This document shows positions 3,971 through 48,027 of a stretch of 64,000 nt of DNA, piece after piece. Within the stretch, counting starts at the first letter, position 1, and every line of letters begins with the position of its first letter. Location of the stretch: sequence record LC727697.1; one strand, 5' to 3'. This DNA is from Pseudomonas phage sp. 30-2. Below the pieces are notes generated by a model. That model made no database searches, was not told the DNA's origin, and saw nothing but the letters and a program-made list of their open reading frames with translations. The translations under genes were made by a program, and so were the position numbers.

Positions 3971-3986
3971 TTACACTTAACATTCA

Positions 3987-5340: not shown

Positions 5341-5350
5341 TACTACTTCC

Positions 5351-5554: not shown

Positions 5555-5569
5555 AATATCCCCTGAATA

Positions 5570-7943: not shown

Positions 7944-7964
7944 TGCAAATGCGAATTATTTACG
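7944..7964 (-). promoter_or_regulatory. palindromic motif copy (tgcaaatgcgaattatttacg)
   Basis: Degenerate match. Confidence 0.45.
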
Positions 7965-7980
7965 TTTATAAAAGAAAAAT

Positions 7981-8004
7981 AAAGGGGGATAATTCCCCCT
8001 TTAT
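7981..8004 (-). terminator. GC-clamped hairpin aaaggggg-ataatt-ccccctttat
   Basis: Perfect stem plus T-run. Downstream of 8007-8363. Confidence 0.6.
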
Positions 8005-8006
8005 TT

Positions 8007-8363
8007 TCAAACGTTAGCTTCGTACCATTCGAAAGAAGATTTAATTTGTTCTACTTCGTTTGAAGTAATTGTTCTCGGAGTAAGAAATTCTTCATACGAA
8101 GACGGTTTAATTTCATTTACGTCGTCTTCTGATTTCAAACCGAGATACTCGCCTGTTTGAATAGAATAAACATGATACATTTGTTTGCCTTGCTTAATTC
8201 CTGCTCGATGCCCGCGGACTACCGAATCAACTACAACGCCATTAGCAGTTGAAATAGGAGTGATAACATTGAGTCGAACAACAATACGGGTATTATGCAT
8301 TTTAATACATTCCTTTCCAAAAATCGTCTTCATCTTGATATGTATCGTATTCATATATGTCAC
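8007..8363 (-). CDS. hypothetical protein (118 aa)
   Basis: ORF. Confidence 0.4.
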   Translation of the reverse strand: MTYMNTIHIKMKTIFGKECIKMHNTRIVVRLNVITPISTANGVVVDSVVRGHRAGIKQGKQMYHVYSIQTGEYLGLKSEDDVNEIKPSSYEEFLTPRTITSNEVEQIKSSFEWYEANV

Positions 8364-8577
8364 GTTGTTTCTTTTTGCGTTTTCTTAATACTTCTTCTCT
8401 AATAGATTTTACATAACCTACTCTACCCGGAGTTTCGTACACATAACAGCGTTTTATCTGAACCCTTATAGGAATTAAATCCATATAATGGTATACTGCC
8501 CAGATATATTTAAAATCATAACCTTTTATAATTATTTTTCTTATAGGTGCTTCTTCGTGCGGAACATCACCGATCAT
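8302..8577 (-). CDS. hypothetical protein (91 aa)
   Basis: ORF. Overlaps its neighbour. Confidence 0.35.
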   Translation of the reverse strand: MIGDVPHEEAPIRKIIIKGYDFKYIWAVYHYMDLIPIRVQIKRCYVYETPGRVGYVKSIREEVLRKRKKKQRDIYEYDTYQDEDDFWKGMY

Positions 8578-8614
8578 TAGGATAGGGTAATCTGTATATG
8601 CTTCTATTTACTTC

Positions 8615-8851
8615 TTACCTATCGTCAACTACTTTGCGATTATTTGTTTCTGCCCATTCGTATATGCCTGTAAGTTCCTTACAGTTTTCGCACGAAAAAT
8701 ATACTACATTTAATGGATCATCTGCACATACTTTTGGTATTTTTATGTTTATAAGAGTGCTACCACATTTTGCACAGATGATATGTAATTTATTTGCCAT
8801 AGCTATTAATTTATCGCTTTGTTTAACAGCATTGTGCATATAGTAACACAT
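8615..8851 (-). CDS. small zinc-ribbon-like protein (CAKCG...CENC)
   Basis: Two CxxC pairs about 30 aa apart. Confidence 0.45.
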   Translation of the reverse strand: MCYYMHNAVKQSDKLIAMANKLHIICAKCGSTLINIKIPKVCADDPLNVVYFSCENCKELTGIYEWAETNNRKVVDDR

Positions 8852-8886
8852 GTAATATTTAATTCAATAGAAAATATTATTACATA

Positions 8887-8912
8887 GCAAATGCAAATTA
8901 ATCTTGTTTAAC
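8887..8912 (+). promoter_or_regulatory. palindromic motif copy in flipped orientation (gcaaatgcaaattaatcttgtttaac)
   Basis: Central spacer AATTAATCTT instead of AAGATTAATT. Confidence 0.45.
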
Positions 8913-8923
8913 TTGTAACATAC

Positions 8924-8955
8924 AAAAGAAGCAGGAATAATTCCTGCTTCTTTTT
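8924..8955 (-). terminator. hairpin aaaagaagcagg-aataatt-cctgcttctttt
   Basis: Perfect stem flanked by A/T runs, so bidirectional. Confidence 0.6.
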
Positions 8956-8956
8956 C

Positions 8957-9289
8957 TCAGCTCAGTTCTTCTATTCGATTTGCTCTACGTAGAGCTTCGA
9001 CGAGAATTGATTGCATAAGAGGTGAATCAGTGTAATCTGCAATAACTTCGTAATCACTATTGCAATAAATGCAATACACATGACCTACCTTCACTTTCTC
9101 TGCATTATAAATACAGAATGTATCACTGTCGGTAGACATGATAGAATTCATAATATCTTTTACAGAAGTACTCTTCTCGATCGCCCAATCACCCCCTTCG
9201 TAAACGGAAACTGAATAACCCCGGGCAATTGCATGAGTAACAAAACCACGTACAATATAACGCATATTTCTTACACTGATAGTATTCAT
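8957..9289 (-). CDS. hypothetical protein (110 aa)
   Basis: ORF ending at the hairpin. Confidence 0.45.
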   Translation of the reverse strand: MNTISVRNMRYIVRGFVTHAIARGYSVSVYEGGDWAIEKSTSVKDIMNSIMSTDSDTFCIYNAEKVKVGHVYCIYCNSDYEVIADYTDSPLMQSILVEALRRANRIEELS

Positions 9290-9316
9290 TGCCGTTCTCC
9301 TGTGTAGAGAGAATTA

Positions 9317-9718
9317 CTAATTAGCGTTCCAGCAAGTGTCAAACACAAGCAAATCTGTTAGTAGTTTCCACTCCGCTGCGGCAAGGTATGCCGAATGTTT
9401 TTCTACAAATTCGGGACTATGTAACGAAACTGACCAGCCGTTGCCGCGAATATACACCCGTTCTTTACTCCGGGCTACCTTGCCGTCTTTACGCATTGCA
9501 TCCTTGTGATGCGGATGCCCGGCAGTGCTAGACCACTGTACTGCCATTTGATGCAGTGCTACTTCGAAAAGTTCTGCATCTGACATGTTTATGTCCAGAT
9601 CCGGCACTTCAGCATCATATATGTTTGTCCCTACATAAAACTTTGCGTAACTTTTCATGACAGACAATCCTTTATGTTTTAGTTCTGTTATTAAACTTCT
9701 ATAAACACATAATAGCAA
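9317..9718 (-). CDS. hypothetical protein (133 aa)
   Basis: ORF with moderately raised GC. Confidence 0.45.
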   Translation of the reverse strand: MLLCVYRSLITELKHKGLSVMKSYAKFYVGTNIYDAEVPDLDINMSDAELFEVALHQMAVQWSSTAGHPHHKDAMRKDGKVARSKERVYIRGNGWSVSLHSPEFVEKHSAYLAAAEWKLLTDLLVFDTCWNAN

Positions 9719-9817
9719 AACTACTATGTATTGTAACTCAAAAATTTGTAACAGAGATCCTATCTAAGTTTTCCATCTCATATCCATGTTTAGAAGTCGT
9801 TTCTATTATACAAGATA

Positions 9818-9850
9818 GCAAATGCAAATAAGATTAATTAGTGTTTGCAA
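9818..9850 (-). promoter_or_regulatory. palindromic motif copy (gcaaatgcaaataagattaattagtgtttgcaa)
   Basis: Matches consensus. Confidence 0.5.
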
Positions 9851-10228
9851 TTTAACAACTGTGTTACTAATATATTCTTTTATAGATATATTGCAAATGT
9901 TAGTATGTTACTCCTACCCAAAAGTAGCCTACTCGCAGGTAGCAGTGATGGCCGTCATAATATATCGGCTTACACCAAATAAAAGGTTCATTGGGTTTGC
10001 TACCCCAAGTCGGATCCCATCCTATATTCCAATCACCATAACGCACAGCCCAATATATATGTTTTAAGATATTCATTTATTTTTGCCTCTATCATAATAG
10101 CTAGTTGATATTTTTGTAGTTATCATAAGATAATTACTACTTAGCATCAAAGACAAAGTAGTCATGCCTTCTTTATTGTCACTTAATACAGGAATAAAGA
10201 ACTGGAATTAATTATTCTTTATTTTTTG

Positions 10229-10853: not shown

Positions 10854-11168
10854 TTAAGATCGCAGCATCTCGGCGAGTTGATCGACAGTCTCTCGCAGCG
10901 CCTCGTTCTCCGCCTTGAGTTTGTCGATCTCGTCTAGCAAGTCGAGGACGGCTCGGGGGTTGGCGGCAGCACAGAAAGTGGCGTTAGCCTTGTCCTGCTC
11001 CAAATCGCTGTAAAAGCCTTCGTTACCGATCACGACTTCGCCATTGTCCGCTCGGATTACAGGAAACAGATTCGACCATGCAATGTCATCGCCTTCCTCC
11101 CAAGTTGCATACCACGGACCCGGCGTAGCCAGTTTTGCTAGCTTTTTTATTTTGTTGGTGTCGGTCAT
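10854..11168 (-). CDS. Ea22/Ead-like family protein
   Basis: KKLAKLATPGPW plus ...AAANPRAVLDLLDEIDKLKAENEALR, the characteristic PGPW signature. About 55% GC. Confidence 0.6.
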   Translation of the reverse strand: MTDTNKIKKLAKLATPGPWYATWEEGDDIAWSNLFPVIRADNGEVVIGNEGFYSDLEQDKANATFCAAANPRAVLDLLDEIDKLKAENEALRETVDQLAEMLRS

Positions 11169-11356
11169 GGAATCATCTCCGCCATTTCGGTAATAGCCTT
11201 TGCTAGGGCAAGGGCGTGTTCACAGTTACGGGCGCTTTTGCGAAGTGGAGTGCTGACGATGCGCATGTTAGTCACCCAAAATGTAAGCGATTAGGCAGGC
11301 GTAAATGGCCAGTCCAGGATGGCCAGAGAAGGCAAGGACTAGAGCGATTACCCAGA

Positions 11357-11623
11357 TCATGCGATCTCCTCCTTCGCCTGCAGTGTCATGTTGAGGTTAT
11401 ATTGCTTAGCGCAGGAGCAAAGGCGGCGAAGTTCATCGTTCTCGTCCGCCATGTGAAAAAATTCGATGTTGTAGTTGTTCAGCTTCAACTTACCGCTGCT
11501 GAATTTGGCAGATACGCGATGGCCTTGCGTGTGCAGGCTAAGGCCAAGATAGCGGAGTATCGACCTGTGGTCGGTTGGGATAGGTTCGTTCTTTGTGTTG
11601 ACGACAAACAAATTGATGGTCAT
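11357..11623 (-). CDS. hypothetical protein (88 aa)
   Basis: ORF fills the gap, ending 4 nt from the next gene. Confidence 0.4.
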   Translation of the reverse strand: MTINLFVVNTKNEPIPTDHRSILRYLGLSLHTQGHRVSAKFSSGKLKLNNYNIEFFHMADENDELRRLCSCAKQYNLNMTLQAKEEIA

Positions 11624-11626
11624 GCT

Positions 11627-12028
11627 TCACCCGAAGTCATACGCTTTCAGAACGCCATGTTTATCGTAGCCGACTTGACCACAATCTATGCTGCCTACCC
11701 AATCAGGAAAGTTTGCATGGGTGTTGTTCTTCCAATCCACTTCAACCAAACGCTCTTGCATGACGCAAATGAAGCCTCCGATTTCTAGCCAGCGTCCGCG
11801 CGCCAAGTAGCTGCCGGAACAGCTACCTTCCCAATCGTTGCACCGCTCACCCCTGTCATTAATCGGGAACTTCAGGACGTAATGCTTAGATAGAAAGCAT
11901 GCCCGTGTGATACCAATCTTCGGCTCACCGTACTTGGCAAACAACCGATTCAGTTGTTGCTGGGCAAGTTCATTGCGGTGCTGGGCGATGAAACCGCCAA
12001 ACAGCAATTTGTCCAACACAATGTTCAT
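11627..12028 (-). CDS. hypothetical protein (133 aa, GC-rich island)
   Basis: ORF at about 52% GC. Confidence 0.5.
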   Translation of the reverse strand: MNIVLDKLLFGGFIAQHRNELAQQQLNRLFAKYGEPKIGITRACFLSKHYVLKFPINDRGERCNDWEGSCSGSYLARGRWLEIGGFICVMQERLVEVDWKNNTHANFPDWVGSIDCGQVGYDKHGVLKAYDFG

Positions 12029-12052
12029 TCTGCGTGTCCTACGTGGAGACCA

Positions 12053-12487
12053 TTACAGATCCCGGATAGCTTCGGCGTTTTTTTCAAACCACTTGACTAG
12101 CTTTTGCATAGCTTCGGCTGGTGTCTTGCCCTTGATCTTGCGGAACTTGATCACTTCCGAACGATAGGGGATAGACCACGTTAGCAGCTCAATTTCGACC
12201 GGCGAACCTTCTGGCAATACATTCCCGCGATTGTCACACAAATTCATCATAAAGCGCATGTAACCGCTCGCATTCATCAGAATGCTGTTCGGGGCTTCGG
12301 AAGCGCAACCGACATTCGCAAACGAAATTGTCATCGACGGACCAAGGTTATCGGAAACCGACGCGGCGGCGATGTAATTCGGAAAAATCTTAGCCATGGA
12401 AGTTTTGAAGTCTTCGGCGGCTTGCTTGGTGTTTTCTACGATCATTTTTGAATCTCCGGGGCTGTTAGTCATGGCTTGTCTCCCCAT
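12053..12487 (-). CDS. hypothetical protein (up to 144 aa; start uncertain)
   Basis: ORF at about 50% GC. Confidence 0.45.
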   Translation of the reverse strand: MGRQAMTNSPGDSKMIVENTKQAAEDFKTSMAKIFPNYIAAASVSDNLGPSMTISFANVGCASEAPNSILMNASGYMRFMMNLCDNRGNVLPEGSPVEIELLTWSIPYRSEVIKFRKIKGKTPAEAMQKLVKWFEKNAEAIRDL

Positions 12488-12735
12488 TTCACTTCAAGCC
12501 ACAGGTCAACAGACTGGCGTCCTTCGGCATGCACCGCACAGTCGAAGCCGAGACTACGCAACACTTTGAGGATCGCTTCGCTGCGCCGCGAGGTGCCGAT
12601 GCCGAACCCATAGGCGCGGGTAGTGTACACGTACTTTCCTTCTGCGGCTGCTTTGGCGATGTCGTTGAGGATGGCATCGACATCGTCTTTCGCTCGCGCT
12701 ATGTCACGGGCTTGCTCAGCGGTCAGTCTGCTCAT
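12469..12735 (-). CDS. hypothetical protein (88 aa, start MSRLTAEQARDIARAK)
   Basis: ATGA overlap with the upstream gene. About 58% GC. Confidence 0.5.
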   Translation of the reverse strand: MSRLTAEQARDIARAKDDVDAILNDIAKAAAEGKYVYTTRAYGFGIGTSRRSEAILKVLRSLGFDCAVHAEGRQSVDLWLEVKWGDKP

Positions 12736-13055
12736 TTCACTGCCTCGATACCGGCTTCTTGGAGGGCTTCTTCCTGCGCCTTGAGCATTGCTTCGTAGGC
12801 TGGGAGGCATAGACCTCCTATGTAGTTTGTATCTGGGCAGACCACGGCGTCGTAGGTATCTTCCAACCAAGACGGGCACTGCCGCGGCATCGGGACGTAA
12901 TCCTTCATCAGTGCCACACGACTGGCTTTCCAGGCCTCGTAGCGTGCCTGAACATGCGGGTTGAGGTACAAGTCGTCGACTGCATTGTACGCAAGCGGTG
13001 CCGAAGAACGAGTCCGAACCCACGATTCAAATTCTTTTTTCATGTTAGGCTCCAT
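12732..13055 (-). CDS. hypothetical protein (107 aa)
   Basis: About 55% GC ORF. Translationally coupled to the downstream gene. Confidence 0.5.
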   Translation of the reverse strand: MEPNMKKEFESWVRTRSSAPLAYNAVDDLYLNPHVQARYEAWKASRVALMKDYVPMPRQCPSWLEDTYDAVVCPDTNYIGGLCLPAYEAMLKAQEEALQEAGIEAVK

Positions 13056-18823: not shown

Positions 18824-19528
18824 TTACTTGCTTTCCTGCGCCGCCCCGGCGATCGCTGCGTTCTTTTCAGCGACCTTTTCGGCGCGCTCAGCTTCGCGCT
18901 TGGCCTTGCGTTCGTCAGCTTCGCGCTTGGCAGCCGCCGCTTTTTCTTCGCGTTCCTTCTTCTCGGCATCGCGCTTGGCCTTGCGTTCGGCAGCTTCTGC
19001 CTCGGCCTGCGCTTTGCGGTTGATCAGGAAGCCCTTGCCGCTGTTCGCCTTGCCGGCGCCGAGTTCAAAGACGAAGCCCAGGCGACGCAGCTTGTTGCCG
19101 ACGGAAGTGCTGTTCTGCTCGAAGTTGGCCTTGTCGACCCCGTCGAACACCAGGGTAGCTTCGTCGAAGCCGGTGTGGGTGATGGCCGCCTTGACGATCG
19201 CGATCGCGTTGCTGAGCCGGCTTTCGTCGGTGAGCGGTTTCGGACCCTTCTGCCCGGGAACTTTCGGTTCCGGGGTGTACTTGGCCGCCAGTTCCTTGCC
19301 GTCGAGCGCCTGCTCGATTTCGCGGGTGATGCGGATCGCGCTGAACACTTCCTTCTGCTCGAACTGTACGACGGTGCCATCTGCCAGTTCGACTTCGGCG
19401 GTCGCCGACCAGGTGCGCTTGCTCGGGGTGGTGTAAGTAGCCATGGTCTGGCCGATGACCACGCCGTTGATTGCCAGTGCCAGGACGTGCTGTTTGTCGG
19501 TACGTTGACGAGTGATATGTACGGACAT
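18824..19528 (-). CDS. GC-rich hypothetical protein with a long charged C-terminal helix (KAQAEAEAAERKAKRDAEKKEREEK...). Paralog of 659-1114.
   Basis: About 62% GC. Shared blocks with 659-1114. The overlapping antisense or out-of-frame ORFs are GC artefacts. Confidence 0.7.
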   Translation of the reverse strand: MSVHITRQRTDKQHVLALAINGVVIGQTMATYTTPSKRTWSATAEVELADGTVVQFEQKEVFSAIRITREIEQALDGKELAAKYTPEPKVPGQKGPKPLTDESRLSNAIAIVKAAITHTGFDEATLVFDGVDKANFEQNSTSVGNKLRRLGFVFELGAGKANSGKGFLINRKAQAEAEAAERKAKRDAEKKEREEKAAAAKREADERKAKREAERAEKVAEKNAAIAGAAQESK

Positions 19529-19900
19529 GTTGTATACCTCTGTAGCTGATGGAAGGATTATGTTGTTTACTTACTACACTTTCGGGGCACTTACCCCTTA
19601 AGCTTGTATACAGTGTAGAGCCTAGTTTGCATTGCGTCAAGCATTTTTTGTTTACTTTCTGCGTTGCTTACTATGTAGCGCTCTACACACTGCGTCTACA
19701 GTTCGCACTTTAAGGTCGTAGTAATGGAAAGTCAAGCATTTTTTAAAATATTTTTAAATTATTTTTTACCATCTTGTATACGCGCGCGAGCTATATATAG
19801 CAAGGTCAATCAGTATGGTGTAGAATTATAATTTATAAACAAATCAACTACTTATCTACTATCCATTTCCAAGTATGCTACCAATCCATATACTGGGCAG

Positions 19901-20027
19901 TGCAAATGCAAATAAGATTAATTATTATTTGCATATTCTTTTTCGTTGCAAATGCAAATACGAATTAGTCTTATTTACAATAACAAATGAAATTACAAAC
20001 GCAAATAAGAATTAGTCTTATTTGCAA
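19901..20027 (-). promoter_or_regulatory. cluster of three palindromic motif copies interleaved with direct repeats
   Basis: tgcaaatgcaaataagattaattattatttgca, ttgcaaatgcaaatacgaattagtcttatttacaa and gcaaataagaattagtcttatttgcaa. Confidence 0.55.
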
Positions 20028-20135
20028 TAACAAATGAAATAGAGATGAATAAGGAAATGAATAAGGAAGTGACAAATGAAATAGAGATGAATAAAGAAAT
20101 GAATAAGGAAGTGAATAAGAGAATATCTGCTCAAA

Positions 20136-20164
20136 AAGAAAGGCAAACATAAGTCTGCCTTTCT
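20136..20164. terminator. hairpin agaaaggca-aacataagtc-tgcctttct
   Basis: Perfect 9-bp stem. Confidence 0.5.
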
Positions 20165-20686
20165 GATATAAATGCTCCTCAGAACAGTCACGTGCTCTGT
20201 ATCTGGGCAAATTATGCTCGTCAGCACAACGGAGCGGTATATCTTGCCTAAGGAATTGTTATTTGTATAAAGCCCCTTACTCTTTATACTCAGCTAGAAT
20301 ATACAATACTAAGGAATCACTAGCATCATCCTTAGGTCTATCTGGTTATACCAGAATCGACATATCTAAACAACATAGGAGGTATTTACGTATGCAACAG
20401 CGCATAACTTGTATATAGTATATGCATATGTGTATGTAATGTAAATGTTATTTTTATTAATTTACAGATAGTTTCTGTTCTTAATCTTTTCTAAACTATC
20501 AAAAATAAAAGATTAGCCAATGCATCGACAACATGCGCGATTGCATTTTGCATATACACTCAGAACACAAAATGTAAATGCAAAATGCAAATGCGGATCC
20601 GAGTTTGTGCCTAAAATTGAATTTGGAAACCGGAATTGCGATTTAGAATTCCAAAACCTAAATCGCAATTCCGAATGGCCGAATAC

Positions 20687-26376: not shown

Positions 26377-26679
26377 TTATACATATTCGTTTGTGTCAAA
26401 CAAAGTCTCCCAGTGAATAGAAATAAAATCTACACTATCAAAAAATATACATTTACCGTGTGTTACAAACCGGTGTGTATTCTGCTGCAAATGAATTATA
26501 CCTAGTAGTTCATTAGGAAATGTTTTATAGTTAACAAATCCTCCCTTTTTATTACAAAAATATATTGAGTCGTATTCATTAATAAAGAACCTTATTTGTA
26601 AAGTTTCTATATCATAAAAACAACCTTGTATTCTTATAACTTCACTGCTAAGGATCAATATAATATCCATACTAGTCAC
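26377..26679 (-). CDS. paralog-array family member
   Basis: MDIILILSSEV ... LGIIHLQQNTH. Confidence 0.5.
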   Translation of the reverse strand: MTSMDIILILSSEVIRIQGCFYDIETLQIRFFINEYDSIYFCNKKGGFVNYKTFPNELLGIIHLQQNTHRFVTHGKCIFFDSVDFISIHWETLFDTNEYV

Positions 26680-26939
26680 CAGCCAAAAATTATTACGCCA
26701 TTGTGGTTTAGTATCATAAATTCATCAAATCTATTAAATGATATAGTATCACAATTGTACTGTAAATAAAACATACCTACAATGTCATTACTAGCATGGC
26801 AATTTAGATACCCATTAATTTTCTGTATCTGATTTAGAAAACGATATAACGTGTTATAATCGGGCAGAACAAGTCGAATTTCACAATCAGTATAAAGAAT
26901 CCATTCGACATTACGCTGAAGCATTAATATTAATAACAC
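26676..26939 (-). CDS. paralog-array family member
   Basis: MLLILMLQRNV ... VGMFYLQYNCD. ATGA coupling. Confidence 0.5.
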   Translation of the reverse strand: MLLILMLQRNVEWILYTDCEIRLVLPDYNTLYRFLNQIQKINGYLNCHASNDIVGMFYLQYNCDTISFNRFDEFMILNHNGVIIFGW

Positions 26940-26951
26940 AAATTCCGTCCT

Positions 26952-27242
26952 CTACAAACTAAAAAAATGACCGCCTTTACTATCTAGAAAACAAATCATA
27001 TCCATTTGATGTTTTTCATTAAGAAAATAAAACTTATTTGTATGCACTTGTAAATGTATAATTCCTATTACATCATTTATAACAGAGTACGAAACAAAAT
27101 GTTTCATACTGAAACCATGATGATCTATTAATGAATATGCTACTTCATTAGTATCAAAAATATCAAATCCGTGCGAAGCCCTTCTAATCGAACAACACAA
27201 TTTCTGTATAAACAGGATAAAATACATTACTAAAGTATACAA
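26952..27242 (-). CDS. paralog-array family member
   Basis: ILFIQKLC ... IGIIHLQVHTN. Confidence 0.5.
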   Translation of the reverse strand: MYTLVMYFILFIQKLCCSIRRASHGFDIFDTNEVAYSLIDHHGFSMKHFVSYSVINDVIGIIHLQVHTNKFYFLNEKHQMDMICFLDSKGGHFFSL

Positions 27243-27514
27243 ATATATTGAATTAGATCTTCATACACATTAGTCATACGACATATTATAGAACGGGTAC
27301 TATAACTTATTTGTAATGAATGTATGCTATTCTGCAAATGCATTATACTAGTTTCGTTGTTTATACTATTACACGAACAATAGGCATACATACGCCCATT
27401 CGGCGGACGTAATAACGATACTATAGTATAATCACTATAGTCGATCATATCTATAATATAATCTGAATACCAAATCTTAAAACAACGAGACTGAAATAAT
27501 AATATTAAGTCCAT
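27230..27514 (-). CDS. paralog-array family member
   Basis: MDLILLFQSRC ... SIMHLQNSIH. Confidence 0.5.
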   Translation of the reverse strand: MDLILLFQSRCFKIWYSDYIIDMIDYSDYTIVSLLRPPNGRMYAYCSCNSINNETSIMHLQNSIHSLQISYSTRSIICRMTNVYEDLIQYICIL

Positions 27515-27517
27515 ATA

Positions 27518-27835
27518 TTAGACAAAACTATTGTATATAGCATGTTGAAGAAAACCGTTAGCAAACACCATATTAACAATAATATCTGTTTTACCAGAAA
27601 CTGATTTTAAATGTTTAACTTCTATTAACGATAGAATAGATTGCATATGCAATAATCCTATCACATCACATAAATTATTATACAAACAATATGCATCATA
27701 TGACACATGTTTTCTCCCCATAGGCAACGTAATTCCATATACGAACTCCCTATTATGCGCATTAAGCATATCAATGATTTGTTTGGTATATACAATCTCA
27801 TGACACTGAGATTGAAGTAATAGTATGAAATCCAT
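27518..27835 (-). CDS. paralog-array family member
   Basis: MDFILLLQSQC ... IGLLHMQSIL. Confidence 0.5.
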   Translation of the reverse strand: MDFILLLQSQCHEIVYTKQIIDMLNAHNREFVYGITLPMGRKHVSYDAYCLYNNLCDVIGLLHMQSILSLIEVKHLKSVSGKTDIIVNMVFANGFLQHAIYNSFV

Positions 27836-27838
27836 ATA

Positions 27839-28108
27839 TTATTTCAAATCAACATGTATTTCATGTACAAACCTATTATTATTAGCAAAAGTAAAAGAAA
27901 TATAATTGTCCGTATGCATGAAAAATTTATAATTACAGTATTGTAAATGAAGAATACCAAGTAAGCAATTGATATTTCTATAATACAGTCTAATACCGTT
28001 ACCTGTAATCATAGCTATATGCTTTTCATTCTTGTTGTTAAGACGGACGTACCATTCACTATAGTCCATCTCTACAGTATTATGTTGAAGAAATAGTATC
28101 AGATCCAT
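27839..28108 (-). CDS. paralog-array family member (one of a recently duplicated pair)
   Basis: MDLILFLQHNTVE ... LLGILHLQYCNY. About 75% identical to the 28112-28384 product. Confidence 0.6.
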   Translation of the reverse strand: MDLILFLQHNTVEMDYSEWYVRLNNKNEKHIAMITGNGIRLYYRNINCLLGILHLQYCNYKFFMHTDNYISFTFANNNRFVHEIHVDLK

Positions 28109-28111
28109 ATA

Positions 28112-28384
28112 TTATTTCAAATCAGCATATATTTTATGTACAAATCTATTATTATTAACAAATGTAAAAGAAATATAATTGCCCATATACTTGAATAAAA
28201 AATCATAATTACAATATTGTAAATGAAGAATACCAAGTAAGCTATTAATATTTCCATAATACATTTTAAAACCGTTATCGGTAATCATAGCCATACTATC
28301 TTCATTCTTGTTGTTAAAACGAATGCACCATTCGCACGCGTCTATCTCTACAGTATTATGTTGAAGAAATAGTATCAGATCCAT
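28112..28384 (-). CDS. paralog-array family member (one of a recently duplicated pair)
   Basis: Near-identical to the 27839-28108 product. Confidence 0.6.
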   Translation of the reverse strand: MDLILFLQHNTVEIDACEWCIRFNNKNEDSMAMITDNGFKMYYGNINSLLGILHLQYCNYDFLFKYMGNYISFTFVNNNRFVHKIYADLK

Positions 28385-28639
28385 AACTAGTTGTCCTGTA
28401 TATACGTTATACTACGAAATGGAATTATATTAACAAGCGTACAGTAGGTGAGTTGTATAGAGTCACGGTTTATATACGTATAGCATACTATATTCCGTAT
28501 ATGTTATGCAAACGGGAATATATAATGAAACCGGCCTATATAGCAAGAATTGGAAATTTTCAAAAAAAATATTTTTTATTGAAAAAGAACTTATATTTTA
28601 TAAGAAGGTCCCTATATAGCAGAAAACGGATTTTTCCAA

Positions 28640-28745
28640 AAAAAATCTATAAAAATGGTTAGAAATGGCTAGAAATGGAAAGAAAATGGATGTAACTGGG
28701 AAGAATATAAATGTAACTGGAAAGAAAATGGATGGGACCTATAGA
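28640..28745. repeat. purine-rich microrepeats (tagaaatgg x3, aatggatgtaactggaaag x2)
   Basis: Read directly. Confidence 0.55.
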
Positions 28746-28819
28746 GCAAGATTTCCAAAATTTTGGTCCTTCTTTCTTCGGTGATGTTAGGGTTCACCGA
28801 AATATGTACTATATAATTC

Positions 28820-29165
28820 ACTTATTATTTGTACACTATCACTATCTTATTAGTATCACTCAGTATCACTCATTATTTGTACACTATAGCTATCTATCAG
28901 TATTGGTATTAGTATCACTTCTATAAGTATCACTCATTATTCACTATCTATTGGTATTATCAATCAACATTATTCATTATTTGTTACACTATAGCTATCT
29001 CAGTATTAGTATTTTAGTATTAGTATCTATCAGTATTATCACTCATTATTTGTATACTATAGCTATATCTATCAGTATTAGTATTATCACTCATTGGTTG
29101 TTACACTATAGTTTCTATCTATTAGAGTATTATCACTCATTAGTTATAGTGTAGTGATTTCTATC
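28820..29165. repeat. iteron-like array of at least 5 direct repeats of a roughly 50-bp unit (tatcactcattatttgtacactatagctatctatcagtattagtatt), ending in an inverted partial copy
   Basis: Unit copies start near 28822, 28862, 28974, 29037 and 29086. The plus-strand ORFs 28732-28926 and 28951-29154 are translations of the repeats. Confidence 0.65.
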
Positions 29166-29181
29166 ATTCATCTTCATTACT

Positions 29182-29463
29182 TTAATAAAGTCTTCTTGAA
29201 TAACATTTTGTATTAACTGATAACCAATTACTATTACACATAGATAAAACAAAGGGATGAATGTGTATTGTATAAATTATATGCTGAAGATAACACATGA
29301 TTATATTGTTATTATTAAAGTTATTGATATGTATGTAACAGTTGAATTTGTTATTGTATATACCTAATTCTAATAATCTATTTCTATCAGAATATAATAC
29401 AAAATCATTAGTTAGAAACTGTATTGTAGTTGTGTATGATTGTAATGTTATAATAAATTTCAT
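29182..29463 (-). CDS. paralog-array family member
   Basis: MKFIITLQSYT ... IIMCYLQHII. Confidence 0.5.
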   Translation of the reverse strand: MKFIITLQSYTTTIQFLTNDFVLYSDRNRLLELGIYNNKFNCYIHINNFNNNNIIMCYLQHIIYTIHIHPFVLSMCNSNWLSVNTKCYSRRLY

Positions 29464-29744
29464 TTATGGTTATAGTTATGGATGTATATAAAAAATATTA
29501 AATCCGTACATACATCATATATTTTTATTAGGTAATATGCACGTTGTAGTATATGTGTTTTAGACTGTAAATGTAGTATGCCGAAAATATCATTAAAGAC
29601 ATTATAGTCTATGTCTACTACGGTCTTTTTGTTCTTGCGTGTTATAAGATAAAAGCATTTTCTATCTGAGTTAATTAAACGATAAGTAGTATCAAATTGG
29701 GATATATATCTAGTTTTATTTTGCAGTGCGAGGATTAGGTTCAT
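29460..29744 (-). CDS. paralog-array family member
   Basis: MNLILALQNKT ... FGILHLQSKTH. ATGA coupling. Confidence 0.5.
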   Translation of the reverse strand: MNLILALQNKTRYISQFDTTYRLINSDRKCFYLITRKNKKTVVDIDYNVFNDIFGILHLQSKTHILQRAYYLIKIYDVCTDLIFFIYIHNYNHK

Positions 29745-30025
29745 ATGATAGAGTGAACTATATAGTGGGAAGTAAAGATTACTAGTGAGTTCCGTGTGGT
29801 AGATATTAAAGTTGTTTGACTTTGTATATGAAGAATGCAGATTTCGTTACACAACTTATCGTAGTTCGCACGCACATATACACGGGATATTATTTTTTGG
29901 ATCTTTATTTCTATTATAGGTTGGTCATGTACGTTATATAGTGTTAAGCCGTGACGGGTGCTGCCAGAGTGGGTGGATTTTTTAATTTGATTTACTTCTG
30001 AAGAGATAAGTTTAATATAGTCCAT
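29741..30025 (-). CDS. paralog-array family member
   Basis: IKLISSEV ... ICILHIQSQTT. Confidence 0.45.
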   Translation of the reverse strand: MDYIKLISSEVNQIKKSTHSGSTRHGLTLYNVHDQPIIEIKIQKIISRVYVRANYDKLCNEICILHIQSQTTLISTTRNSLVIFTSHYIVHSII

Positions 30026-30320
30026 GTGTTATAATATAATAAACGTTTCTATGGTACATATTTCTCATTCTTATCATATAATAAGAATTTGATGATTCTT
30101 GATGTATAGTGTGTGTATTTTGTTGTAGATAGAGTATTGCAGTTTTGTCATTAAAAATACCTAGATATATGAACATAGAATTTGTTATATCTATGTCTAT
30201 TACTGGCATTTCGTCTTCTGTGTATAATTCTATAATACTATTACGATATAATATAATAGAAGTGTTATGTTGTAGTAGGAAAATAAAATCCATAATTATA
30301 TAACCAAGGTATTGTTGCAA
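30012..30320 (-). CDS. paralog-array family member (probable start at MDFIFLLQ)
   Basis: MDFIFLLQHNT ... TAILYLQQNTH. Confidence 0.5.
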   Translation of the reverse strand: MQQYLGYIIMDFIFLLQHNTSIILYRNSIIELYTEDEMPVIDIDITNSMFIYLGIFNDKTAILYLQQNTHTIHQESSNSYYMIRMRNMYHRNVYYIITHGLY

Positions 30321-30550
30321 AGATATGGATACGCTAGAAAATGGCTATGTACAATGGGATAACTAATAGTTTTTGTGTTATGTTGAATATAACAGATTAA
30401 ATCAATGTTTAGTAATAATTTGCTAATGTAAATTTTAGTTTGGCCATACATGTAATGGCAAATTATAATTTCTTTAGTTTTATTAATGACGATTATATAG
30501 TTAGCATATGCACTTATTGTATGTGTTAAATGTGAGATATGTATTATCAT
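30296..30550 (-). CDS. paralog-array family member
   Basis: LICYIQHNT motif. Confidence 0.4.
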   Translation of the reverse strand: MIIHISHLTHTISAYANYIIVINKTKEIIICHYMYGQTKIYISKLLLNIDLICYIQHNTKTISYPIVHSHFLAYPYLCNNTLVI

Positions 30551-38992: not shown

Positions 38993-39214
38993 TTACCAAT
39001 ACTTTTTTCTTCGTTTATTCTTCGGTAACAAATGTTCCCCGGATAATTTTTTTATCATTTGCCGTTGCTGCTCTTGTGCAGTTTGTTTACAAGACTTAGA
39101 ACAATATAGTCCCCAACCTCTTTTAACATCGGCAATTCTTACTTCGAATACATTATTACATTCTATATTATTGCATGTTATTTTAGTTTTCTTTCCCCTA
39201 GGCGTTGTTGACAT
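38993..39214 (-). CDS. small basic zinc-ribbon protein (73 aa)
   Basis: CNNIECNN ... CSKSC cysteine pairs. Lys/Arg-rich. Confidence 0.45.
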   Translation of the reverse strand: MSTTPRGKKTKITCNNIECNNVFEVRIADVKRGWGLYCSKSCKQTAQEQQRQMIKKLSGEHLLPKNKRRKKYW

Positions 39215-40635: not shown

Positions 40636-41274
40636 TTAATATTGTTGCCAAAGATTTTTGGATTTCATTTCATTTACTAACCATGTGCAAAATTTAGCAT
40701 GCCCGGCAGCATTTAAATGCAATCCATCACCAAAATATGTTGCATTTTGGACAGGTGCTTGTTTCCCATCTATAAAATAGACATTACTATTATTAGCAGA
40801 AACAAGTGAAGTAACCCATTGTGCTGTATTTTGAAAATCTGCAAGTACATTAGTCGTTCCGTCGTATTTTAACACAGATGTATCCTTATCTTGTCGCCAT
40901 ATAGGCGAAACAATTACAACAGGTATGGTTAACGATATTGCTGCATTCAAAAAATCAGTTAAAGCATAAAAATAATCGACTGTAGTTACGTATGGACTTC
41001 CGTAGTCGTTTGTACCTAATGTACACACAACTCCGTTTAACCCGAAAAATCCATGTAATTTGCTTAATGAAGAAATATCAAACGGATCACTAGGATCAGT
41101 TCCTTTTGCTAAACGCATACCCGGGACAGACACGTTCTGTATAGATGCGTTTACTTTAAACGGTATCATAGATGCAGTGAGTTTATCTGCCCTCGGAATA
41201 ATACCACTATTACTATTTTCTAATACCCATGCCTGGATAGAATCTCCAACTAATGCCCAACGCTGTTGCCACAT
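40636..41274 (-). CDS. SGNH/GDSL-family hydrolase (esterase)
   Basis: Block I LVGDSI, block III GTNDY, block V DGLHLNAAGH. Confidence 0.65.
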   Translation of the reverse strand: MWQQRWALVGDSIQAWVLENSNSGIIPRADKLTASMIPFKVNASIQNVSVPGMRLAKGTDPSDPFDISSLSKLHGFFGLNGVVCTLGTNDYGSPYVTTVDYFYALTDFLNAAISLTIPVVIVSPIWRQDKDTSVLKYDGTTNVLADFQNTAQWVTSLVSANNSNVYFIDGKQAPVQNATYFGDGLHLNAAGHAKFCTWLVNEMKSKNLWQQY

Positions 41275-43799: not shown

Positions 43800-43889
43800 T
43801 GGCAGATACTGTAGGATTCGAACCTACGGAGCTTTTTCAAACTCACTTCCTTAGCAGGGAAGCACCTTAAGCCACTCGGTCAAGTATCT
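43800..43889 (-). tRNA. tRNA-Ser (anticodon GCU), long variable arm, CCA encoded
   Basis: Hand-folded. Acceptor agatact/agtatct, anticodon loop cuGCUaa, T-loop ttcgaat. Confidence 0.7.
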
Positions 43890-43894
43890 ATATT

Positions 43895-43984
43895 TGGCGG
43901 AGAGGGTGGGATTCGAACCCACGGGACCTTTCGATCCGCTAGTTTTCAAGACTAGTATAATAAACCAGACTCTATCACCTCTCC
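43895..43984 (-). tRNA. tRNA-Ser (anticodon UGA), long variable arm, CCA encoded
   Basis: Acceptor ggagagg/cctctcc, anticodon loop cuUGAaa. Confidence 0.7.
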
Positions 43985-43998
43985 AAAACTAGTTAATT

Positions 43999-44358
43999 CT
44001 ATTCGTAAATTATTCTACAATGTTGTTTTCCTGCAACTCTATCTAAATAACCAAGTCTAGCTAAAATAGCTGGAGCTACATTATTATATTCATCTATAAA
44101 AGATTTAGGAACATTATATAAGTATGCACTTTGGTCATTATCGAATTCTTTACAAAAGATACCATAAAAGTGCGGAACATAGGGATTATCTTCGAATTCC
44201 TTATTTTCTAAAATCTTATCTTCTAAATACGCATCATTTGCAAATAATCTAATATTTTTATTTATTTTATTAGATTCGTATTCCGAGTCTTCGTATATAA
44301 TTTTTGCATCGGCAGTAGGAAGATATATTCCGTATACAATTTGAATTTTGGAAATCAT
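43999..44358 (-). CDS. hypothetical protein with a GIY...IIYE motif (possible degenerate GIY-YIG homing-endonuclease remnant)
   Basis: IVYGIYLPTADAKIIYEDSEY spacing resembles GIY-x9-YIG. Lies between tRNA genes. Too short for a full enzyme. Confidence 0.3.
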   Translation of the reverse strand: MISKIQIVYGIYLPTADAKIIYEDSEYESNKINKNIRLFANDAYLEDKILENKEFEDNPYVPHFYGIFCKEFDNDQSAYLYNVPKSFIDEYNNVAPAILARLGYLDRVAGKQHCRIIYE

Positions 44359-45170
44359 TTAAAATTCTCTTTTGTTATTTTATGCACTTATTATACGAAA
44401 TAATTATACTTTTGTCAAATGTTATTTTGTATATTTAAAAGAAATCATCATAAGAATGTACTACAAGTATATATTTTTCTTATTAAATATCCGTCGGGAT
44501 CTATTATAAAAATATTCAAATGCTTTGAATAAAAAACACCATTAAAAAAGTAAGTAGGGGATATTCGTATAATACCTTCGTTAGCATTAATAGATATCCT
44601 AAATATGTTTTCCATAAATCCACACCGTTATTATGTGTATTTATGGTTTTATTTCTATTTAGAATAGTTATTATAATAGATATATAATGGTTATTTAAAG
44701 GTAAGTCAATTTATAAAATAATAGATAAGCTAAAAATATTTGCATGCAATTAAAAAATCAGTTGTTTTATCTACAACATATATTTCTAATTGTTTTCTAT
44801 TGCTTGTCGGTTTAGTTTTTATCGAAACACATATAGATTTTGTATAAGACAACCTAGAAATGCTATATACATTTTCACGAAAAATAGACAAATCGAGTCT
44901 AAATATGCAACCTGCCATTTAATGTTGGTTCCTTAAACAGAACAATATCAATTTATATTTTTATTCTATCTGTCTAAAAACCATAAAGCATAATTTCCTA
45001 TATTAGGAAGGTATAAACATAAACAATGAGATTTTCTTACATACAATAACTCTGTTGTGTATGCCTGTATTTCCAGCACCGTTATATTAGATGGTATAAC
45101 TAATACTTCCATATTTATCCACTACACGAATCATCGAATAGATATACCAATCAATTATATTAGAATATTG

Positions 45171-45243
45171 AGCAGCCCACGGGACTCGAACCCGTAACAT
45201 CTGACTTGGAAGGACAGTGCTCTACCAATTGAGCTAGGACTGC
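45171..45243 (-). tRNA. tRNA-Gly (anticodon UCC), probable
   Basis: Cloverleaf with acceptor gcagtcc/gggctgc (one G-U) and loop cuUCCaa. One U-U mismatch in the anticodon stem. Confidence 0.55.
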
Positions 45244-45252
45244 ATAGTAAAT

Positions 45253-45329
45253 TGGTCTAGGCAGGAGACCTCGAATCCCCAACCTCTTGCTCCCAAAGCA
45301 AGTGCTCTACCTACTTGAGCTATGCCTAG
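45253..45329 (-). tRNA. tRNA-Pro (anticodon UGG), CCA encoded
   Basis: Acceptor ctaggca/tgcctag, anticodon stem cttgc/gcaag, loop uuUGGga. Confidence 0.7.
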
Positions 45330-45338
45330 ATATAAAAC

Positions 45339-45415
45339 TGGTTGCAGGGGTGGGATTCGAACCCACGATAAAAAGGTTATGAGCCTTTCTGCTTAGACCT
45401 CTTGCATACCCTGCG
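45339..45415 (-). tRNA. tRNA-Met-like (anticodon CAU) with a 1-72 C-A mismatch (initiator-like feature)
   Basis: Loop cuCAUaa. T-arm gtggg-ttcgaat-cccac. Acceptor cgcaggg/ccctgca has a C1-A72 mismatch. Confidence 0.6.
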
Positions 45416-45438
45416 ATAAAACTATATTGTTATATTAT

Positions 45439-45771
45439 TTACCATTTTAAATTTTTAATCTGAGAAAAATCAAATTCCGGAAGTATGCATTTATCGTCTA
45501 GATAATCTTGCATAATCTTTACATCATCAGGCGAACACGAACCTGTACTAGATTGCCACAGGCTCATTATATCTTTCGAATACATAGATCCACGACTATG
45601 TATTCCGTATCTACAGTGCATATTGTCTTTTACTATGCCAACTCTTGCTTTTCCGGCATCGAAATAAACAATATTATATATTCCGTCTATATATGAAATT
45701 AGACGTGCATTTTTTCTATTGTTACGCTTTATCCATTTTAGAACATCTGTATCATTAGAATAATTATTCAT
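45439..45771 (-). CDS. hypothetical protein (110 aa), possible mobile-endonuclease remnant
   Basis: DGIYNIVYFDAGKARVGIV is GIY-YIG-like. Intercalated between tRNA genes. Confidence 0.3.
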   Translation of the reverse strand: MNNYSNDTDVLKWIKRNNRKNARLISYIDGIYNIVYFDAGKARVGIVKDNMHCRYGIHSRGSMYSKDIMSLWQSSTGSCSPDDVKIMQDYLDDKCILPEFDFSQIKNLKW

Positions 45772-45799
45772 TATTTGAGGTACTCTTATATATACATGT

Positions 45800-46042
45800 T
45801 TATTCTAAAATTATTTTCCCTTTACCGTATAATTCTGTATTATACCAAGCTACAGAGTATAAGTAAATAGAATTATATTTAATATCGAATATGTATATTC
45901 CGCTAGTATCAGTTCTAATACTGAATGCTTGTTGTTGAAGCCAAAATAATTTTATTTGTAACGATAACTCTTTGCATTTCCTACAAGTCGATGTATGCTT
46001 TTTGATTGTTCTGTATTGTAGATGTTCTTTGCATCTATTCAT
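45800..46042 (-). CDS. small Cys-containing protein (80 aa)
   Basis: CKEH...CRKCK motif. Confidence 0.35.
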   Translation of the reverse strand: MNRCKEHLQYRTIKKHTSTCRKCKELSLQIKLFWLQQQAFSIRTDTSGIYIFDIKYNSIYLYSVAWYNTELYGKGKIILE

Positions 46043-46310
46043 ATTATTAATATAAATTTTTATACTATAATATTTTTATAGCGAGTCCAGCCTACTAAAC
46101 AGGTATTGTGCAGATTGTAGTTCGAATCAATTCCGATTAATACTCGTCCTATATAATTTTTTCGTAAGTTTAGCTGACCTGGACTGATCCGAGTTTTTCT
46201 GCACACTTCAAATATATCTTTACCTATACAACAGAAACCTTGTTTCATACTATAACGAAGAAGTCTTATGTCAAATCTTATTGTTTGCATAACACAACAC
46301 TCTTTAAAAT

Positions 46311-46387
46311 TGGCGCGCCCGGAGGGATTCGAACCCCCGACCATCCGCTTAGAAGGCGGATGCTCTATCCAGCTGAGCTACGAGCGC
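46311..46387 (-). tRNA. tRNA-Arg (anticodon UCU), CCA encoded
   Basis: Acceptor gcgctcg/cgggcgc (one G-U). D-arm tagctcagctggatagagca. Loop cuUCUaa. Confidence 0.75.
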
Positions 46388-47299
46388 ATATCTTGTGCAA
46401 CTAATGATAGCTTTGTAATAATGCTTTGTATGCGTAACATTATATACTGTTTTGTTTGTTCGGTCAACTATTTTTATTAAAATATATATCTATACAATTA
46501 AGTAATGATCGACGTAACATTTATGAAAATAACTACCACTATTTATTAAGTATAAAGCTATTACGGATTTCTCACAAAAAGTATTTTTACTGACTACAAA
46601 CCCTTTGTAGATTTTTGCATGACATACGATGCGTTCTAAATAGTACGAATAGGAAAAAATACAGTTCATTATCATCATCTTAGCCGTACAATATAACAAT
46701 TCTTATCTAGCCGAACATACCATACTATTTCGCCAGAATAAACACAAACTATGGATTCCGACCATTTTAATAACGACAATTTACATATCAATGTTTTATG
46801 CGAAATAGTTAAAATTTTTTCCATTCTTTATTCTATGTAATAAAGTTAATAAGAAATACTAAGTATACCGCAATATCGATAATAAACAGAATTGCTATAT
46901 ATTATCTAAGCACTTCCGGTATTTGTTACAATAAAAATATTATGTATTATAGAATATAACGGAACATCGGATGCAAATAGTATCTTATCTTAAATATCAT
47001 AGTAATAGAAAGGATAGTAACAGATCTATTATCGCATAACGATATTATGTTGAAACAAGGCATGTATATTACTTCTGTTGAGTATTGTAAATTAATAATG
47101 TATTTCATTTTTTAATTCTATATTGCATTGTATTTCCATGCCATAGAAAATGTACCGATATCAAAATGTACCCATAATGTAAAAGATCTATTATTTTTTA
47201 TAGTGACTACTAACTTGTTTAATACGCGATATTCTATTACGTATGTGTTGGCAGATATATGCATTATTTCATTCATAATAAAAATATCATAATAAAAAA

Positions 47300-47326
47300 G
47301 GAACATACCATAATATGTTCCTTTTG
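47300..47326 (-). terminator. hairpin ggaacatacc-ataa-tatgttcc within the tRNA cluster (processing or terminator element)
   Basis: 8-bp stem, one GU-type mismatch. Confidence 0.4.
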
Positions 47327-47334
47327 TAGGAGTT

Positions 47335-47419
47335 TGGTGCCCGGTGCCAGACTCGAACTGGCACGACTTTCGTCGGGAGATTTTAAGTCTCCTGTGTCTA
47401 CCGATTTCACCAACCGGGC
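47335..47419 (-). tRNA. tRNA-Leu (anticodon UAA), long variable arm, CCA encoded
   Basis: Acceptor gcccggt/accgggc. Loop cuUAAaa. Confidence 0.7.
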
Positions 47420-47468
47420 ATATTCATTCATTATATAGTTTAAGTATAGTTTGATTTGTATATAAAAA

Positions 47469-47545
47469 TTGGTGGGACTTACTGGATTCGAACCAGTGAC
47501 CTAGCGATTATGAGTCGCGCGCTCTAACCAACTGAGCTAAAGTCC
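47469..47545 (-). tRNA. CAU-anticodon tRNA, copy a, whose body resembles tRNA-Ile2 (lysidine tRNA)
   Basis: Anticodon arm gcgactcataatcgct and D-arm tagctcagttggttagagc match the E. coli ileX sequence as recalled. Acceptor gggactt/aagtccc. Confidence 0.65.
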
Positions 47546-47615
47546 CGTTTGAAACATTATATGAATATTTTATTTAGACTATTGTATCTCTTTAGATACA
47601 AATGTTATTTAAAAT

Positions 47616-47691
<76 letters not shown>

Positions 47692-47717
47692 ATATTGAAT
47701 ATACAACAAAGTGTAAT

Positions 47718-47793
47718 TGGCTGGCTAGGTAGGACTCGAACCTACGACCCAATGATTAACAGTCATTTGCTCTACCGACTGAGCTACTAGCCA
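47718..47793 (-). tRNA. tRNA-Asn (anticodon GUU)
   Basis: Acceptor tggctag/ctagcca. Loop cuGUUaa. Confidence 0.7.
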
Positions 47794-47843
47794 TTTAATT
47801 TTAGAATAGTTTCCTATCTTGTTAAGTATTTATATCTTTTGTT

Positions 47844-47928
47844 TGGTACCCGAGACCGGACTCGAACCGGTACGCTGCGAAGCGGGAGATTTTAAGTCTC
47901 CTGTGTCTACCAATTTCACCACTCGGGC
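47844..47928 (-). tRNA. tRNA-Leu (anticodon UAA), second copy with a different variable arm and acceptor
   Basis: Acceptor gcccgag/ctcgggt. Same D and anticodon arms as 47335-47419. Confidence 0.65.
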
Positions 47929-47950
47929 TAAAAGCACAACATCTTAAAAT

Positions 47951-48027
47951 TGGTCCCTCGAACTGGATTCGAACCAGTGACCTAGCGATTATGAGTCGCG
48001 CGCTCTAACCAACTGAGCTACCGAGGG
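47951..48027 (-). tRNA. CAU-anticodon tRNA, copy b, identical to 47469-47545 except for the acceptor stem (ccctcgg/tcgaggg)
   Basis: D-arm, anticodon arm, variable loop and T-arm are base-for-base identical to copy a. Confidence 0.65.

Follow-up and report, generated by a model that had tools for sequence, protein, structure and literature searches.

The window analysed here is a stretch of 64,000 nucleotides from Pseudomonas phage sp. 30-2 (LC727697.1), and the element under study is a block of direct repeats at positions 28640-29165. A first-pass annotation, made from the letters alone, had described this block as iteron-like and proposed either a replication origin or a recombination hotspot. 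When the window was compared with phage records by BLAST, only ten Wroclawvirus records matched, with 95-97% identity over 20 kb, which placed it among the Wroclawvirus, PA5oct-like jumbo Pseudomonas phages of the family Arenbergviridae. The ten records represent nine distinct phages: PA5oct, which was present twice (MK797984.1 and its RefSeq copy NC_071039.1), and MIJ3, Paride, Cassandra, Deifobo, Ettore, Callisto, PAC2 and 30-3, which were present once each. In the alignments, the ten phages are the window phage and these nine relatives, which are about 96% identical. The window runs as the reverse complement of the PA5oct record, is AT-rich (25-33% GC) and carries small co-oriented genes. 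The full PA5oct genome was put together from nine record pieces and has a circularised length of 286,783 bp. Since exact-pattern scans of IMG/VR for the repeat unit and the boundary element described below, and of the JGI metagenomes for the boundary element, gave no further relatives, the comparative evidence is restricted to ten closely related GenBank genomes.

In PA5oct, the direct terminal repeats (DTRs) are long, estimated at 39,080 bp and carrying 105 mostly early genes, and the genome ends were located by read mapping and with PhageTerm (PMC7318152; bioRxiv 10.1101/679506). In its record, positions 1-39080 are annotated as the terminal repeat on the basis of double sequencing coverage. 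The record both starts and ends within the intergenic region that bears the block in the window. When the joined record ends were aligned to the window, position 1 fell on 28783 and the record end on 28784, and therefore the array at 28800-29165 makes up the final ~380 bp of unique DNA ahead of the DTR. By this homology of about 96% to PA5oct, the array lies in unique DNA adjoining the DTR, and the block is very probably the unique-DNA flank of the left boundary of a DTR of about 39 kb. From inside the repeat to the unique DNA, the features of the window are:

28112-28384, minus strand: first gene within the terminal repeat, 90 amino acids, paralog family A, transcribed away from the block; its position matches PA5oct EST35_0002
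28385-28648, minus strand: conserved non-coding leader of the terminal repeat, with two copies of a ~36-bp motif (28535-28570 and 28611-28646)
28649-28734, no strand assigned: purine-rich microrepeats, belonging to the initial ~135 bp of the terminal repeat
28738-28775, minus strand: third motif copy CCTATAGAGCAAGATTTCCAAAATTTTGGTCC, containing the perfect palindrome CCAAAATTTTGG, with a GGACC/GGTCC inverted repeat on the flanks
28777-28801, no strand assigned: boundary element TTCGGTGA-N9-TCACCGAA, a hairpin with an 8-bp stem; the mapped left end of the DTR lies between 28783 and 28784
28800-28845, plus strand: first conserved repeat unit AAATATGTACTATATAATTCACTTATTATTTGTACACTAT, directly outside the boundary, 94-100% identical to relatives
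28846-29130, plus strand: hypervariable degenerate tandem array, with cores TATCACTCATTATTTGTACACTATAGCTAT at 28864, 28928 and 29037 and a diverged unit at 29085
29131-29165, plus strand: terminal unit with the inverted segment TAGTTATAGTGTA, seen in most relatives
29182-29463, minus strand: last unique-region gene, 93 amino acids, transcribed toward the block; first of about five genes with strongly negative coding-strand GC skew

The conserved core of the boundary element is TTCGGTG-N9-TTCACCG (28777-28799). At the left boundary the element folds, as DNA, into a hairpin of -6.9/-7.4 kcal/mol (z = -4.2/-4.7). The pair TTCGGTG..TTCACCG, with the two motifs within 80 nt, was found exactly twice in the circularised PA5oct genome, once at each DTR boundary: on the plus strand at 39064-39110, across the 39080/39081 junction, and on the minus strand at 286768-7, across the 286783/1 junction. 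Because the single motifs occur 37 and 15 times in this genome, only about 0.08 pairs would be expected. The two copies are inverted relative to each other, each pointing out of the repeat, and both contain an independently published coordinate. The circularised PA5oct genome has, then, a cut-site-like sequence at each DTR boundary that is rare elsewhere. In the window the pair occurs once.

A counterpart of the array was found across the terminal repeat. At the right boundary, about 160 bp are nearly invariant in seven phages up to TTCACCGTCTATAGGTTC, and variation begins exactly where an array starts. These right-hand tandem arrays begin ~30 nt outside position 39080 of PA5oct, and likewise in five relatives. 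In PA5oct the right array consists of CGTCTATAGGTT in three copies, TTCACTTATAAGYCACT in two and ACTGT in five, and its unit and copy number vary between phages (units of 12, 29 or 44 bp), 30-3 having 29-bp units and MIJ3 at least four 44-bp units. A short core, WTCACTYA, occurs 31 times genome-wide, five times in the left array and twice in the right, in all seven cases pointing outward. About 0.04 occurrences would be expected per array, so that 7 of the 31 fall within the 0.7 kb that the arrays occupy. Two more perfect tandem arrays were seen ~1.7-1.9 kb past the right DTR boundary of PA5oct, one of AGGGTGA in six copies (40799-40841) and one of TTATATGAGTGA in four copies (40982-41029); the latter has the TCACTCAT core of the block in the opposite orientation.

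Within the left array, the 30-nt core TATCACTCATTATTTGTACACTATAGCTAT is present in five in-register copies, at 28816, 28864, 28928, 29037 and 29131, which are 70-100% identical. At 29085 begins a sixth unit that has diverged further, and there the match is limited to the first 12 nt, TATCACTCATTG. The 12-mer TATCACTCATTA, with one mismatch allowed, occurs six times in the 64 kb, always on the plus strand and within 28854-29142; about 1.0 occurrence is expected by chance, and 0 of 100 shuffles reached six. The 30-mer TATCACTCATTATTTGTACACTATAGCTAT with up to three mismatches was found twice, against 0 expected. Tandem Repeats Finder (TRF) reported a period of 46 with 2.5-3.0 copies at 29028-29166 (scores 148 and 123) and a period of 22-27 at 28818-28908. 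The first-pass annotation had counted at least five tandem copies of roughly 50 bp, and the number holds, but the array is degenerate and interrupted, with 48, 64, 109 and 94 bp from core to core. The cores are direct repeats with uneven spacing, and their copy number and order vary among near-identical phages, which does not fit the regular phasing of one binding site. The linkers between them are of the (C)TATCAGTATTAGTAT type and are themselves repeated. As the annotation had noticed, the array ends in an inverted partial copy: the element TAGTTATAGTGTA, at 29141-29153, shows 92% complementarity to a segment, TACACTATAGCTA, that three upstream units contain. The local hairpin of this terminal unit is weak (-3.6 kcal/mol, z = -1.95), and the unit ends the array 16 bp short of the stop codon of the last unique-region gene. 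The annotation had proposed to look for the unit elsewhere in the full genome; in the 287-kb PA5oct genome the core is found at no other place.

The lengths of the left arrays were compared by pairwise alignment. Measured from the hairpin to the next gene, the array has 405 bp in the window, 363 in PA5oct, 413 in Callisto, 337 in 30-3, 447 in PAC2, 446 in Deifobo, 561 in MIJ3, 524 in Cassandra, 513 in Paride and 232 in Ettore, a range of 232-561 bp among ten phages that are about 96% identical. Between the window and MIJ3, 402 of 405 positions match, and the window has in addition one clean deletion of 156 bp. This deletion ends within direct repeats, which indicates unequal recombination or slippage; the proposal that the array expands and contracts by recombination or slippage between its units was thus borne out. 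Indels in the block come in steps of ~46 bp and 156 bp. The first unit and the TTCACCG half-site together form a higher-order unit that is repeated two to three times in relatives; starting with GTATTCACCGAAATATGTACTATATAATTCACT (outer half-site plus first unit), it has one or two extra internal copies in 9/9 relatives. Conservation is uneven along the region: the boundary element and the first unit are 94-100% identical across relatives, the array interior is ~79% alignable, and the neighbouring unique-region gene is ~95% identical.

The block also coincides with a sharp local switch of GC and AT skew, which is centred on it, although the genes lie on a common strand and belong partly to one paralog family. 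At the third codon positions, the seven genes just inside the repeat (26377-28384) have G99/C62 and T324/A170, whereas the five genes just outside (29182-30550) have G29/C85 and T176/A173 (Fisher p = 2.9e-9 for G/C and 1.4e-5 for T/A). GC skew in PA5oct reaches its genome-wide low in the 1.5 kb that adjoin the boundary on the outside (-0.245; mean +0.058, standard deviation 0.081), although the genes there are on the plus strand. The PA5oct counterpart of the region in which the skew flips is 284000-286500. The last 3.6 kb of PA5oct hold 5 of the 15 open reading frames (ORFs) on the plus strand with the lowest third-position GC skew (n = 289). At the right DTR boundary the switch is weaker and of the same sign, and the effect fades within ~2.5 kb. 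Its polarity is the one that diverging DNA synthesis, or diverging exposure of single strands, would produce at the boundary. The switch is unexplained; it is compatible with an origin and also with nick-primed strand displacement during end duplication. The cumulative GC skew of PA5oct, which had been suggested as a check, rises monotonically with the dominant transcription direction, from a minimum at the record start to a maximum at ~284 kb. The global skew cannot locate an origin.

Inside the repeat, the leader at 28385-28648 has 96.6-98.5% identity to the nine relatives, compared with 95% for the neighbouring gene. The ~36-bp motif reads on the minus strand as a T-run, TTGRAAA and TTGCTATATAGG, and its gene-strand form ends in TTGCT(A/C)TATAGG. 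Its three copies (28535-28570, 28611-28646 and 28738-28775) are invariant across the ten phages and may be candidate early promoters or protein sites; the spacing of their elements is unlike that of a standard sigma-70 promoter. A similar TTGCTCTATATAG is present in PA5oct at 38860, ~220 bp inside the right DTR boundary. The purine-rich microrepeats upstream of the array, already pointed out in the first pass, were detected by TRF with a period of 10 (4.2 copies at 28649-28691) and a period of 21 (2.8 copies at 28676-28734). In the alignment of the ten phages, whole microrepeat units are gained or lost, and because of these indels their median identity is just 65%. Microrepeats and motif copies all lie within the first ~250 bp of the terminal repeat. 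The 90-residue gene that follows (28112-28384) had no match in Pfam or PHROG. With the nine relatives, the genes at the start of the terminal repeat can be aligned to only ~50%, so the family-A paralog array turns over quickly. A tandem duplication of 276 bp (2.1 copies, 86% identical) spans two family-A genes at 27812-28385. Family clustering found ~90-residue paralogs on a common strand on both sides of the block, and its description as lying in the middle of a gene array is therefore correct.

Further observations were made outside the boundary region. Islands of ~50% GC are present at window positions 1-1000, 11000-13000 and 19000-20000 in a genome that otherwise has 25-33% GC, and PA5oct has comparable GC-rich stretches in the last ~5 kb of its terminal repeat. 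At 19949-20141 there are tandem repeats of 47 bp (two copies, 93%) and of 42 bp (2-2.7 copies, up to 97%), near the position that matches the highly expressed non-coding RNA ncRNA001 of PA5oct (record 8263-8498, about window 20286-20521). On the minus strand, 43800-48027 holds 12 clustered tRNA genes (Ser twice, Gly, Pro, Met three times, Arg, Leu twice, Thr and Asn), and this set agrees with the one reported for PA5oct. At the gathering threshold, Rfam returned these 12 tRNAs and nothing else in the whole window.

Among known systems, the closest layout is that of the T7 SRL/SRR junction arrays, and by analogy the block is probably a variant of the T7 type. The T7 terminal repeat is not annotated in the T7 record; we take it to be 160 bp (1-160). 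Next to the left repeat the record shows an array of the 13-bp CCTAAAG unit at 174-340, with looser copies before the right repeat, and it lists phiOL at 405, phiOR at 39229 and the host promoters A1-A3 at 498, 626 and 750. As in the block, these are short non-coding direct-repeat arrays in unique DNA that adjoin the terminal repeat on both sides. The T7 arrays adjoin sites tied to end processing and to secondary replication initiation. The three host promoters at the left end of T7 parallel the three conserved motifs at 28535-28775, but the latter lie inside the repeat and those of T7 in unique DNA. The systems differ further in scale, with a terminal repeat of 160 bp against ~39 kb and units of 13 bp against ~46 bp with higher-order structure, and they have no sequence similarity. 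Unlike in T7, the left and right arrays here are made of different units, and an inverted pair of boundary motifs is present.

The terminase recognition sites of lambda (cosB R sites), P1 (pac hexamer repeats) and SPP1 (pacL/pacR) have repeated binding sites for the small subunit, so that several copies of one short motif, fixed in orientation, accompany the cut site. Those phages have cohesive or headful ends and not exact long terminal repeats, and compared with their sites the ones described here are putative, known from sequence, with arrays that are much longer and variable in copy number. The herpesviruses are a virus lineage with a phage-type terminase, and their 'a' sequence at the terminal repeat has hypervariable DR2/DR4 reiterations between the pac1 and pac2 cleavage signals. 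Host domain and sequences are different, however, and the herpesvirus arrays, which are GC-rich, form part of the terminal repeat. Repeat region 3 of T5, at the inner end of the long terminal repeat, is a large untranslated stretch rich in repeats where that repeat meets unique DNA, and it shows more conservation than the genes beside it (10.1101/866236). It resembles the region of the block in having direct and inverted repeats at a long-repeat boundary. The T5 repeats and the injection stop signal (iss), however, are internal to the terminal repeat (positions 9140-10149, the repeat being 1-10219) and have paired DnaA boxes, whereas the block lies outside the repeat and has none, so the block does not correspond to a T5-type injection stop signal. 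Nor does T5 have a tandem array before its right repeat, while the block is mirrored at the other DTR boundary. T5 was rejected as the closest analogue because its repeats lie within the terminal repeat and are unmirrored.

Several public records suggest that the block is a CRISPR (clustered regularly interspaced short palindromic repeats) array or a small protein gene. 'CRISPR' repeat_region features cover it in Deifobo and Paride, and hypothetical coding sequences such as PA5oct EST35_0461 are annotated on it in several relatives. The supposed spacers, however, are repeated linkers where unique ones would be needed, the fully read PA5oct annotation contains no cas gene, and Rfam at E <= 1 on 28300-29300 gave no match in the block; we regard the label as an automated false positive. 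From one near-identical genome to the next, the annotated ORFs change in strand, frame and length; they are short repeat translations like MSDNTNTDRYSYSVQIMSDTNRSYSIQIMSE, as had been stated in the first pass. Neither Pfam nor PHROG had a match for the four longest ORFs of the block or for the two genes that flank it, and a search of the ten genomes for the repeat within a conserved protein-coding gene, which would have overturned the non-coding view, found no ORF with conserved frame and strand. The block is no gene and no CRISPR array, and we attach practically no weight to either reading. It is also very improbable that the block supplies the early genes of the terminal repeat with promoters or transcription-control sites. 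PA5oct is reliant on the RNA polymerase of its host, and its DTR genes are early (PMC7318152; bioRxiv 10.1101/679506), and weak sigma-70-like matches on the gene strand recur in the units (TGTACA-16-TATAGT at 28835-28808 and CTGATA-17-AATAAT). Yet a promoter scan of 27800-29800 gave 22 matches against 18.8 expected from shuffles, which is uninformative in such AT-rich DNA, and a terminator scan of the same region gave none. The better conserved candidate motifs lie at 28535-28775 inside the DTR rather than in the array, and the highest early transcription in PA5oct is that of gp34-gp105 rather than of the first genes (PMC7318152; bioRxiv 10.1101/679506). More serious is the original proposal of an iteron-type origin, of the plasmid or lambda kind, in which an initiator of the phage would recognise the repeated TATCACTCATTA cores and DNA synthesis would proceed in both directions from a start within or beside the block. 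It is favoured by direct repeats in non-coding DNA with a conserved 12-bp core unique to the block, by the skew switch with origin polarity and by the extreme GC skew outside the boundary of PA5oct despite its plus-strand genes. The promoters phiOL and phiOR are linked to secondary origins of T7, and in the T7 record they adjoin the analogous arrays. On the other side, the cores are unevenly spaced (46-109 bp) and vary widely in copy number among near-identical phages, and at the opposite DTR boundary the block has its mirror image in a second array, which is built from a different unit. No DnaA box (TTWTNCACA) was found in 28385-29181, no AT-rich unwinding stretch stands out, as the GC content of the block (0.22-0.29) is like that of the flanks, and the flanking genes show no domain match, Rep-like or other, that would make an initiator-like neighbour. 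The skew effect is local, and the genome-wide skew follows transcription. An iteron origin is therefore unlikely as originally formulated, while a role of the block in initiating DNA synthesis may still be entertained because of the local switch centred on it.

The block is instead most likely part of the region in which the genome ends are cut and duplicated. In replicating concatemers, it would be the junction between the unique region of one genome copy and the terminal repeat. The two inverted elements would be cut sites on opposite strands for the packaging enzyme, a terminase or an associated nickase, and the repeat would then be duplicated by DNA synthesis according to the staggered-nick model, the classical proposal for T7-type ends. 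The arrays with their outward WTCACTYA core may be multi-copy protein-binding or spacer platforms that would position or assist the cut and possibly prime DNA synthesis. Taken together, a flank of the DTR boundary whose elements and arrays take part in cutting and duplication is somewhat better than an even proposition. An active role of the array itself is a possibility that we rate a little below even. The most specific version is tentative and rather doubtful: the inverted TTCGGTG..TTCACCG pairs would be strand-specific nick sites, the arrays protein-loading and priming platforms, and strand-displacement synthesis would duplicate the repeat and leave the skew footprint. A number of points speak against the proposed cutting and duplication role. 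The boundary in the window is transferred by homology from one relative, whose paper terms the DTR length 'estimated', and the evidence is all comparative and from a single tight clade. The inner half-site is TTTGGTG at the left boundary of 30-3, Deifobo and Paride and at the right boundary of Ettore, and the relaxed motif TTYGGTG yields a third pair, at 61377. The cut lies 0 nt past TTCGGTG at the left and 10 nt past it at the right. A stable hairpin is confined to the left element; the right one folds no better than shuffles, and the hairpin was dropped as a common feature of both boundaries. The units of the left and right arrays have merely a short core in common, and T5, another phage with a long DTR, does not have such a layout. 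The window has no internal TTCACCG copies, the boundary copy alone remaining, and since this loss and large changes in copy number are tolerated, most of the array length is dispensable, which also fits a neutral by-product. The array could accordingly be a functionless minisatellite, produced by repeated breakage, repair and slippage beside the genome-end cut site, with the boundary element alone being functional. The variable length with unit-precise indels, the interior as the least conserved part of the region, the different units on the two sides and the internal half-site copies of all nine relatives that are missing in the window are as this explanation predicts. However, arrays on both flanks are kept in all ten phages (right arrays were seen in PA5oct and five relatives), the core TCACTCATTA is near-exact within units while the linkers vary, the cores are uniformly oriented, outward at both boundaries, and the terminal inverted unit is retained. 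On these grounds we hold a purely neutral origin of the array to be improbable, though worth keeping in mind.

None of the papers covered on PA5oct (PMC7318152; bioRxiv 10.1101/679506), MIJ3 and Paride mentions the arrays or the boundary motif. Two public records, those of Deifobo and Paride, are corrected by this analysis, as the block is mislabelled there as CRISPR. The arrays are natural variable-number tandem-repeat markers and would help strain typing. Phages of the PA5oct and Paride type are therapy candidates, and knowledge of their end signals would be useful for genome engineering and for the correct orientation of genomes in databases. Long exact terminal repeats of 10-66 kb are common in large phages, and we know of no account of how, in jumbo phages, the boundaries of the terminal repeat are specified and the repeat is duplicated at packaging. 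The short inverted boundary motif, the mirrored repeat arrays and the mutational footprint at the boundary provide leads, of which the motif and the footprint are new. In conclusion, if the inverted elements are nick sites and the arrays their platforms, they would be the first cis-acting signals for packaging and end duplication to be defined for a jumbo phage with long DTRs.

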